Shown: piece by piece, positions 3,001 through 6,000 of the stretch
Layout: each line of letters opens with the position of its first letter
How positions within the stretch are numbered: position 1 is the first letter of the stretch
From: a virus
Strand: one strand, 5' to 3'
UHGV virus genome: UHGV-0120180
Length of the DNA stretch: 11,186 bases
Program-made: the position numbers

Positions 3001-6000
3001 GCGGTCTCTGGTGGAAAAGTTGTTATTCCCAAAGCGATGATTTATGACGCGGTGATTGAAACACTGGTGTCGCGGAAGGTTGTGGCAGATGAAGTAAAAG
3101 CCGGGGTAAGTATCACGTCGCCTGTTATCCGGAGTGCTGTTATTCAGAACGGGAACTTTCAGGTTGATTCTCAGGGTAACCTGAATATTGGTGGCCTTTT
3201 TAGTGTTACGTCGCAGGGGCAACTGACAATTCGTTACTCTAATCAGAATGTTGGGCTGGTGATCCGCAATGATAAAATTGAAGTTTATGACCAGAACGGA
3301 CGCCTGGCTGTTCGCATAGGCAGGTTAAGCTGAGCCGGAGGCTGACATTGGCAGAATATGGTTTTGCAATATACAACAGAAACAATGTTAATGTTACGGG
3401 CGTGCTTACTCCCATATTTTTCCTGGACAGGTTTACGGCGGAGTCGGGATCAAAAACGTATACGAATAAACCAGAAGGGAAAACATTGCAGGCAGTCTGT
3501 TCATTATTTCCGTGGAATAATGTATTTAAGGACCGGAAAGTACCGAAGATAACCATTAATGGCAATACGGTGACGTGGTCGAATCTTGAGCAGGGGATGG
3601 GGTCATATATTTATACATTCTGGGGGTGAGTTGTATGTATGGTTTAAGCATTACGAAACCAGATGGCAGCTTGTGGATAAGCCCGGGGTTTACGCCTCAG
3701 TGTCTGATCAATAAGGGAACTATTCCGGCGACTGAGAAGGCTTTTTTTAAAACATCAATCCCGTCAGGAAAAAGTTGTTTTTTCTTTATCAGAACAGAGA
3801 AAAAGGCCGATGTCATGTACACACATGAACAGATTGATGGATATCATGCCTTAAGGCTTCATCAAATTGTCAGGGGAACGAATCCTGGTGTTACGACTGT
3901 TTATGCTTTTGCGAATATGGTTACTCAACCTTCTGAGTATGGTATTGCCATGTATAACCCGTCGGGTGAGATGATTTACCATGGCGAAATGATGCTGCTT
4001 GACGCGAAGTTAATACCTGTTGATATCAAATTTGAAAAAGACCTCGGATATCCATGTGCAATTATGCCTGCACTGGTTGGGTATTATAACTGGCAGCGTA
4101 CACCTTATGACCGACCGATTTACACCACATCAACGGGGGCTACAGGAAATAAAATATATTCCTGTGAGCATTATTCCGGTCGTGCAACATGGGATATTCG
4201 GAAGCCGTATATAGATAAAGTGCTGGTCATTAATTCATCAATATATGACTGATATGCCTGTCAGTATGAATATTAAGTAATAAAACTAAATTCATCTTAG
4301 ATAATACGGGGTTATTTTATTATAGGAAAAGTCTAAAAATGAAACATGCCAGAATTATTTTTGCGTGCACAACTTTTGTGATGAGTTTTGTAGCAGCCCC
4401 TGCCTGTGCAGCACAAGGTGACAGTACAGTTTCTTTCGGATACGCTCATCTTCAGCTCTCTGGACTGAACAATTTTGTTAAGGATTTAAGTCTTTATAAT
4501 CTTGATACTTTTAACCGTTTTACAAACAGACACTACTTCAATTCAGGCGAATATGCAGATGCTTCTGTCCGGGGGCATGATGGCAAAGGCAAATCTCCTC
4601 AGGGGATGAACATCAGGTATCGTTATGAGATAACGGATGAGATTGGTGTTATAACATCTTTTACATGGGCGCGTTCTATGACTAATGCGCAGGCATTTAT
4701 TGATGTTAACCCAGGAGATGAATCCAGAGAGGTTAAAAATCCGGCAGCTTCAGGAAGAACAGATATCAGAGCGAATTACTGGAGCCTGTTAGCGGGTCCT
4801 TCGTGGCGGTTTAACGAATACCTCAGTGTGTATGCAATGGCTGGTATGGGGGTTGCAAAAGTCACCACTGACTTGAAAATTAACGACAATCTTAATCATG
4901 GTGCCGGTAGTTTTTCTGAAAGCAAGAGTACTAAAAAAACAGCACTTGCATGGGCTGCTGGTGCACAATTTAACCTGAATGAAAGTGTTGCTATGGATGT
5001 CGCGTATGAAAGCTCCGGATCCGGTGACTGGCGCACGAGTGGGGTTATTGTAGGCATTGGCCTGAAATTCTGAGTAATACCCGACAATATGTCATAACCC
5101 GCTGTGATAGCGGGTTTTTTGTTGCCCGTGCAGGGCAAAAATCGTAGATTATGCGCGGGTGCCTTTCGGCTGATGGCTGGAAGGTGAACCTGAAGGCCTG
5201 ATGTGGAAAGGCCCCGAGTCAACTTTAATGTTAACCCGAGGCCCTAACCATCATACCTTAAGCAAGTAGAAGGTTAGCGCCTCTCCACTCAGGAGGCAAG
5301 CGCTATGTCGCAAAAATCGCTCATCACCGTCACAATTTGTATGACGGTAATCTTCACCATCTGGATGTTACACGGCTCGTTGTGTGAGTTCCGGCTGAAT
5401 TTGTGGGGAGCGGAGTTTGCGGCGTTCTTACAGTGTAAGCAGTAGGAAAACCGCGACGGGGACAAAAGTCCCCGTCAACTGGTTGCTGAGGTTCAGCCGA
5501 TATGGCACCCGTTTCAGGTGAGAGAGAGGTGGTTTTAAGTCAGCCAGTGATGCGCGTAAGTACATTGATTCACATCGTGATGAGCTTGTTCGTCATGTGA
5601 AGGAGATGCGGGAGATTTCGCGTGAGGAGCAGCGTAACGCCACTAACCGCGACCGCACCGGACCAGAACGCCGCAAAGGGGATGTTTCGCCGGAGCAGTT
5701 CAGTGATGCGTTTGGTTTCCGTGGTGTGCAGTTTGGTAATTATGTGGAAGGTCCGCGTCGTCAGGCTGATTTGAACCGGGCTTATGACTCGCTGCATGAC
5801 CTGGCTGACGTGCTGAACGTTCCGACAAAAGCGCTTTCCCTGAATGGTCGTCTTGGGCTTGCTTTTGGTGCCCGTGGTAAGGGTAAGGCGGCGGCACACT
5901 ATGAGCCGGGTGAGGTGGCAATCAACCTGACAAAAGGTAACGGACCGGGGGCGCTGGCCCACGAATGGTTCCATTCACTGGATAATTATTTTGGTCGTTA

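Follow-up and report, generated by a model that had tools for sequence, protein, structure and literature searches.

The window analysed here, namely the whole stretch of 11,186 nucleotides (nt) from the virus genome UHGV-0120180, carries a cassette of the hok/sok type at positions 5122-5511, in which a small toxin gene (hok) on the plus strand is accompanied by the promoter and hairpin of a predicted antisense RNA (Sok) on the minus strand. We regard this as a complete type I toxin-antitoxin cassette. Judged from the sequence and its homologues, a gene for a Sok-type antisense RNA is quite probably present at the locus. As a member of a well-known toxin-antitoxin family, the Sok gene is ordinary, although it had not been annotated before; the one odd feature of the cassette is the missing mok (see below).

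The toxin gene hok (5305-5445, plus strand) encodes a peptide of 46 amino acids (aa; MSQKSLITV...FLQCKQ) that matched the Pfam family PF01848 (HOK_GEF) with 33.2 bits (cutoff 22) and an E-value of 4e-8. The peptide is identical to 72_1589, which belongs to cluster 72 of a 2026 preprint (10.1101/2025.08.07.668861) and was cloned there for a toxicity assay in a foreign expression context. In the same preprint, 42 of the 45 tested peptides were toxic, 72_1589 is absent from the three reported as non-toxic, and both Sok and Mok were explicitly left unanalysed. The hok messenger RNA (mRNA) appears to be complete, with a promoter, pairing between its 5' and 3' ends, a sequestered Shine-Dalgarno sequence (SD) and the 46-aa Hok. 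The putative promoter (5122-5150, plus strand) consists of TTGCCC (5122-5127), a spacer of 17 nt and TAGATT (5145-5150), the latter being TAGATT, TAAATT or TAGAAT in the homologues, and lies 7 nt ahead of the conserved GGGTGCC that forms the 5' end, at which the Rfam model match described below starts. A consensus promoter scan did not call this promoter. The leader (5157-5304) contains the tac element at its 5' end (5157-5173), the predicted Sok target (5201-5263) and a hairpin at 5275-5305 that sequesters the hok SD (AGGAGG, 5291-5296). This hairpin folded at -15.0 kcal/mol and is as stable as its counterparts in hokW, hokC and hokB. In the minimum-energy fold of 5157-5515, the tac element paired with the fold-back inhibition (fbi) element at 5494-5511 (CAGCCGA-TAT-GGCACCCG), which is complementary to the mRNA 5' end and of which GGCACCC is conserved in the homologues. 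A GC-rich stem-loop of 10 bp at 5454-5477, kept in the homologues with variation in the loop, is expected to protect the processed hok transcript. A terminator-like site called by the scan on the minus strand (5477-5454) is this stem-loop read on the opposite strand, and thus it gives no evidence for the end of a minus-strand gene.

The leader was also recognized by the Rfam model RF01794, which matched 5157-5316 of the plus strand end to end (model positions 1-157) with 40.7 bits and an E-value of 9e-8. As the match is of full length and in the sense of the hok leader, we regard the leader in the window as a divergent hok leader. The same model matched hokW, hokC and hokB on the hok-sense strand with 110-118 bits (113.5 bits for hokW). 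Although named 'sok antitoxin', RF01794 is modelled in the hok sense, covers the leader from the 5' terminus of the mRNA as far as the ATG of hok, and matches the strand opposite to Sok; its coordinates in the comparison loci were 402-554 (minus strand), 467-618 (minus strand) and, in the hokW locus, 503-677 (plus strand). Annotations derived from RF01794 consequently carry the wrong strand and the wrong length for Sok, and annotation pipelines would miss a divergent relative such as this locus at the RF01794 threshold.

The sequence-only reading had pointed to a promoter-like pair on the minus strand of the hok leader, and the pair is indeed present: the -35 hexamer TTGCCT (5299-5294) overlaps the hok SD on the other strand, and the -10 hexamer TAACCT (5276-5271) follows after a spacer of 17 nt (CCTGAGTGGAGAGGCGC). 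This candidate promoter lies inside the hok leader and is directed away from hok, at a position homologous to known sok promoters. In the aligned sokW promoter of the Shiga toxin (Stx) phage Sp5, both hexamers and the spacing are identical (TTGCCT, N17, TAACCT) and occupy the same position (PMC8621323, probe YO-597 and primer YO-421). The sokW RNA was detected on Northern blots (Takada et al. 2021, PMC8621323). Mutating its -10 hexamer from TAACCT to GAGCCG (primer YO-421; AGGTTA to CGGCTC on the hok strand) abolished the protection against HokW, which was regained in part when sokW was provided in trans (PMC8621323). By alignment, the position also corresponds to that of the promoters that the annotations of sokB and sokC imply in Escherichia coli K-12, and is homologous to them.

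Conservation was assessed with 35 distinct homologous leaders from prophages of E. coli, Salmonella, Escherichia albertii and Citrobacter. The overall geometry (TTG/TTT-NNN, N17-18, TANNNT) was kept in all 35 leaders, and the -10 hexamer TAACCT was identical in 34 of them. The -35 hexamer began with TTG in 34 leaders, as TTGCTC (21), TTGCCT (6), TTGACT (4) or TTGTCT (3), and was TTTACT in the remaining one. The most conserved block in the leader was the -10 hexamer (~100%) together with the adjoining GAGGCGC (~97%), the predicted 5' tail of Sok being conserved at only ~70%. On the plus strand, AGGTTA was invariant while its upstream pairing partner varied freely. Such one-sided variation argues for an extra constraint on AGGTTA. 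Altogether, the promoter is credible because of homology and conservation rather than the quality of the motif. The predicted promoter would be constitutive and of the sigma-70 type, with a start at 5263/5264.

We predict that the Sok RNA covers 5201-5263 on the minus strand (63 nt), or 58 nt if it ends directly after the UUU at 5206. The start had been placed at about 5264 by the sequence-only reading, which fits with both the spacing (7-8 nt downstream of TAACCT, i.e., 5264/5263) and the annotated ends of K-12 SokB and SokC, both of which map by alignment to 5263 for the 5' end, where the minus strand has a G, and to 5201 for the 3' end. Complementarity to the hok leader, which the sequence-only reading had also noted, is perfect over 5201-5263. 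The predicted RNA comprises a single-stranded 5' tail of ~18-20 nt (5263 to ~5244), followed by a terminator hairpin and by a 3' tail that is short and contains U. The hairpin (5245-5208) has 16 uninterrupted base pairs (14-bp core at 5243-5210) and a 6-nt loop, followed by UUUCC; it is homologous to the terminator hairpin of Sok and is the putative intrinsic terminator.

The length of the RNA is where our results depart from the sequence-only reading, in which an RNA of about 80 nt ended after a 5-bp hairpin at 5213-5195 and the 14-16-bp hairpin had been missed. The 5-bp hairpin can be drawn, as proposed. When the 85-nt transcript was folded, however, the minimum-energy structure lacked it, as its arms paired with the 5' tail of Sok instead, and the sequence behind it (UUCAGGUUCACC) has no U-tract; we thus rejected this site as the terminator. 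A transcript that starts at the same promoter and reads through the large hairpin to an end at ~80 nt, differing only in the 3' end, is not without some appeal, since the UUU tract behind the large hairpin is short enough for some read-through to be plausible, and the 85-nt transcript folded at -41.8 kcal/mol. On the other hand, SokB, SokC (57-59 nt) and SokW, which has 71 complementary nt and a longer hairpin, all end directly after the large hairpin, earlier than the rejected site. We consider the longer RNA quite improbable. Because the 5-bp hairpin neither forms nor bears a U-tract, and because the SokB and SokC ends align to 5263 and 5201, we predict a length of ~58-63 nt with the 3' end at ~5206-5201, similar to SokB, SokC and R1 Sok with their 57, 59 and 64 nt, respectively.

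The large hairpin is clearly maintained as a structure of the minus strand. The minus strand from 5263 to 5201 folded at -30.5 kcal/mol (z = -5.5), whereas the complementary segment of the plus strand folded at -16.4 kcal/mol with three internal mismatches; the C·A or A·C mismatches on the hok strand are G·U pairs on the Sok strand. The minus strand was more stable than the plus strand in all 35 homologues, with mean energies of -26.6 and -15.9 kcal/mol, respectively. In 21 sequences including SokW, SokC and SokB, 94.9% of the cells were paired in the Sok sense vs. 76.2% in the hok sense, and G·U cells amounted to 60 vs. 1. Compensatory changes were found at 7 of the 15 stem pairs and none of 500 shuffles reached any of the observed measures, although related sequences may exceed shuffles without any structure. 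A control with slid partners likewise favoured the Sok hairpin.

These data bear on whether there is any antisense RNA at the locus. The hexamers could be a chance match, and their conservation could stem from the needs of the plus strand only, namely the hok SD, the anti-SD sequence and the leader hairpins. The motif quality is at the chance level, and both elements are constrained on the plus strand, with the -35 hexamer lying over the SD and the -10 hexamer in a hairpin arm beside the anti-SD sequence. Nevertheless, such needs do not account for the selection of the hairpin at 5245-5208 in the minus sense, for the one-sided variation around AGGTTA, or for the presence of identical hexamers at the same place as a proven promoter in sokW (PMC8621323), and we consider a locus devoid of an antisense RNA very improbable. 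The proposal of the sequence-only reading that a hok-type toxin is accompanied here by a sok-like antisense RNA is supported by the PF01848 reading frame, the RF01794 match of the leader, the homology to sokW, sokB and sokC, and the minus-sense hairpin.

There are observations that weigh against the interpretation of the locus as a hok/sok cassette controlled by Sok. First, the Sok transcript at this locus is itself a prediction from sequence and homology. The promoter hexamers are weak, as the sequence-only reading had cautioned, matching the sigma-70 consensus at four of six positions in the -35 and three of six in the -10 (7 of 12 altogether). The consensus promoter scan of the window called neither the TTGCCT/TAACCT pair nor any other minus-strand promoter near hok. 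As many as 119 sites of equal or better quality were found in the 11,186-bp window, i.e., approximately one per 188 nt of strand, and the promoter motif by itself is not above chance. The U-tract behind the Sok hairpin is only UUU. Regarding the leader, the RF01794 score was below the gathering score (40.7 vs. 59), and a search of the whole window at the gathering score returned no match. Moreover, no mok open reading frame (ORF) was found: the position aligned to the mokW AUG is AUC (5250-5252), and UAA follows three codons later (5259-5261). Sok does not overlap the hok SD, being transcribed away from it with the end 28 nt short. Finally, the accessibility of the hok SD in silico was 0.18-0.19 with or without 5201-5263 blocked, regardless of whether full-length, truncated or leader-only RNAs were folded.

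The lack of mok deserves the most attention among these points. All three frames are closed by stops in 5245-5276, and hok has no in-frame N-terminal extension. Likewise, 41 of 61 distinct relatives had no ORF with a canonical start reading into hok, and those in the remainder started at inconsistent positions. In R1, Hok synthesis depends strictly on mok being translated as far as the hok SD, and it is the mok initiation region that Sok blocks (PMC9841398). As mok is absent from the window locus, the classical step, in which Sok blocks the translation of mok coupled to that of hok, is inapplicable as such; with Sok clear of the hok SD in addition, the only translation block that has been experimentally established in R1 is unavailable here. 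Nor can Sok block the initiation of hok directly, because Sok is directed away from the SD and a gap of 28 nt separates the two. The hairpin enclosing the hok SD (-15.0 kcal/mol) is as stable as those in the loci that need mok.

Two substitutes for mok were examined and rejected. One is a relay in which the anti-SD sequence (GCCUC, 5279-5283) is contested between the hok SD and the former mok SD (GAGGC, 5238-5242) and Sok binding re-closes the hok SD; this was unsupported, as the accessibility of the hok SD did not change when 5201-5263 was blocked. The other is the AUG at 5201, which is preceded by an SD-like GAAGG (5192-5196), opens an ORF of 22 codons in the window (MWKGPESTLMLTRGPNHHTLSK; region 5192-5269), and is kept in 58 of the 61 distinct relatives. 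The stop of this ORF lay anywhere between -103 and +134 with respect to the hok ATG, for lengths of 1 to 79 codons, leaving no conserved ORF for coupling. The conservation of this AUG probably concerns the RNA, in the 3' tail of Sok or the structure of the hok leader, and not a coding frame. Database proteins of 59-81 aa that could be taken as in-frame fusions of Mok and Hok are in fact C-terminal read-throughs, not N-terminal extensions.

The absence of mok could mean that the cassette is a relic of a hok/mok/sok module that has lost mok, in which Hok is never translated from its own mRNA, Sok is left without a function, and the Sok promoter and hairpin persist only by recent descent or by constraint on the plus strand. 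Both the AUC codon with a stop three codons on and the SD locked in a hairpin as stable as in mok-requiring loci are consistent with this idea, in light of the requirement for mok translation up to the hok SD in R1 (PMC9841398). Nevertheless, many distinct sequences from at least four enterobacterial species share an intact 46-aa ORF, the SD, the tac and fbi elements, the 3' stem-loop and an invariant Sok -10 hexamer, and selection would not hold an antitoxin promoter unchanged for the sake of a dead toxin. Furthermore, the identical peptide 72_1589 was among the 45 tested and outside the three reported as non-toxic (10.1101/2025.08.07.668861). We thus consider a relic cassette improbable.

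For a cassette controlled by Sok, we propose the following mechanism. Sok would be made constitutively from the minus-strand promoter at 5299-5271 with the start at 5263/5264, and its 5' tail, by analogy with R1 Sok and SokW of Sp5, would nucleate the pairing with the processed, open hok mRNA. The resulting Sok/hok duplex of 58-63 bp would be cut by RNase III, by which translatable hok mRNA would be removed, and no Hok would be produced while the prophage DNA keeps supplying short-lived Sok as the antitoxin. Duplex-dependent decay of the mRNA is most likely the main route of Hok silencing, while the chance that decay is the only mechanism may fall slightly short of even. In the case of sokW, RNase III and Hfq each contribute in part (PMC8621323). 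We also envisage a functional hok/sok system independent of mok, in which Hok is translated directly or after the opening of the SD hairpin, Sok pairs 28-90 nt upstream of the SD, and the control is exerted by RNase III decay or by a standby site or refolding, not by translational coupling. We put this forward as a tentative and rather unlikely option. If it were true, then, with the cassette placed co-directionally inside the late (tail/lom) operon, late read-through running head-on into the Sok promoter could release Hok at the end of the lytic cycle; the idea that phage late read-through serves as an off-switch of Sok at induction is speculative.

The locus shares a series of features with hok/mok/sok (parB) of plasmid R1. 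In both, the -35 hexamer of the Sok promoter lies over the region of the hok SD; Sok, which is predicted in the window, is built of a single-stranded 5' tail, one long hairpin and a short 3' tail, with C·A/A·C mismatches in the plus-strand counterpart of the hairpin; and the hok mRNA displays tac/fbi end pairing and an SD sequestered in a hairpin. The two differ in that R1 Sok blocks the mok initiation region and hok is coupled to mok (PMC9841398), whereas the window locus has no mok, and in that the R1 system is a plasmid-stabilisation module while the cassette in the window resides in the late/tail region of a prophage. The sequence features of R1 were taken in part from the primers in PMC1635323.

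The comparison to hokW-sokW (Sp5/VT2-Sakai, PMC8621323) is between cassettes of the same phage type, and VT2-Sakai carries both loci. Besides the Sok promoter, the two leaders share the GGGTGC 5' end, the CCCC...GAGG hairpin and the AGGTTAGC(G)CCTC block. In contrast, HokW is a different paralogue of 51 aa, hokW possesses a 70-codon mok (orf74) in frame with hok, the Sok hairpin is longer (71 nt complementary), and the RF01794 score is far apart (113.5 bits for hokW vs. 40.7 for the leader in the window). As the 5' tails of the two Sok RNAs are unrelated in sequence, cross-repression with sokW is unlikely. In K-12 hokB/sokB and hokC/sokC, the annotated Sok ends align to 5263 and 5201, as mentioned above, and the hairpin core (GGCCUCGG...CCGGGGCC) is identical; the promoter geometry of sokB (TTGCCG, N17, TAAGAT) is also alike. 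Both K-12 loci differ from the window locus in having annotated mok genes and in belonging to different Hok clusters. In terms of mechanism only, tisB/istR-1 of E. coli provides a parallel, in which the antitoxin RNA pairs far upstream of the ribosome binding site of the toxin, RNase III cleaves the duplex, and there is no leader ORF. It has no sequence relation to the window locus; in addition, the gene of IstR-1 is divergent, and IstR-1 blocks a ribosome standby site that has been demonstrated.

The hok cassette is flanked upstream by the gene of an Ail/Lom outer-membrane protein (4339-5073) with a separate terminator at 5096-5116, and downstream by a plus-strand gene (5597-10492) for a polyvalent protein of 1631 aa with the LPD1, MuF-C and LPD38 domains. 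Both in the window (4339-5445, plus strand) and in two relatives, the cassette points in the same direction as the tail-fibre and lom genes. The region shares 93-99% identity with the segment next to lom in Stx-converting short-tailed phages and in prophages of E. coli; in the records of these, the Hok ORF is the sole annotated feature of the region, if any. Matches to the locus were found in 1750 of 5426 complete E. coli genomes (approximately one third) as well as in Stx-converting phages. The host of the cassette is the tail/lom region of an Stx-type (Sepvirinae-like) prophage.

Our literature search found no paper that names the locus or maps its Sok, T1TAdb being outside the scope of the search, such that a prior computational prediction of Sok is possible. 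Salmonella hok-sokST is plasmid-borne and unrelated to cluster 72. Hok cluster 72 is catalogued but mechanistically unstudied, and is widespread in the prophages of E. coli and Salmonella. The present analysis assigns coordinates, and a promoter open to testing, to a predicted antitoxin RNA for which the phage and genome records examined contain no annotation. A cluster without mok offers a natural test of the generality of the R1 paradigm and of silencing by a distant cis-antisense RNA. Stx phages of the Sp5 type carry two hok/sok cassettes, of which only hokW has been studied. In VT2-Sakai/Sp5 (AP000363.1), hokW-sokW is at ~57.5 kb and the 46-aa hok at ~44.47-44.90 kb, the latter lying between lom and orf66, where the original record AP000363.1 does not annotate it.

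In the relatives from Stx phages, the homology to the window stops at 5525, just past the fbi element of hok on its 3' side. An ORF of 32 aa at 5502-5600 has only its first eight residues (MAPVSGER) in common with the 134-aa orf66-type protein of Stx phages, and the N-terminus of the 1631-aa polyvalent protein corresponds to only the last 36 positions of the LPD5 domain. The end of homology, the short ORF and the partial LPD5 domain together suggest a junction of mosaic recombination at the edge of the cassette. The prophage hok was additionally detected, with 76-100% aa identity, in assemblies of unrelated taxa, namely Xanthomonas pisi (on an 857-bp contig), a metagenome-assembled genome of Planococcaceae and Vagococcus sp., all of which are most likely contaminant contigs.

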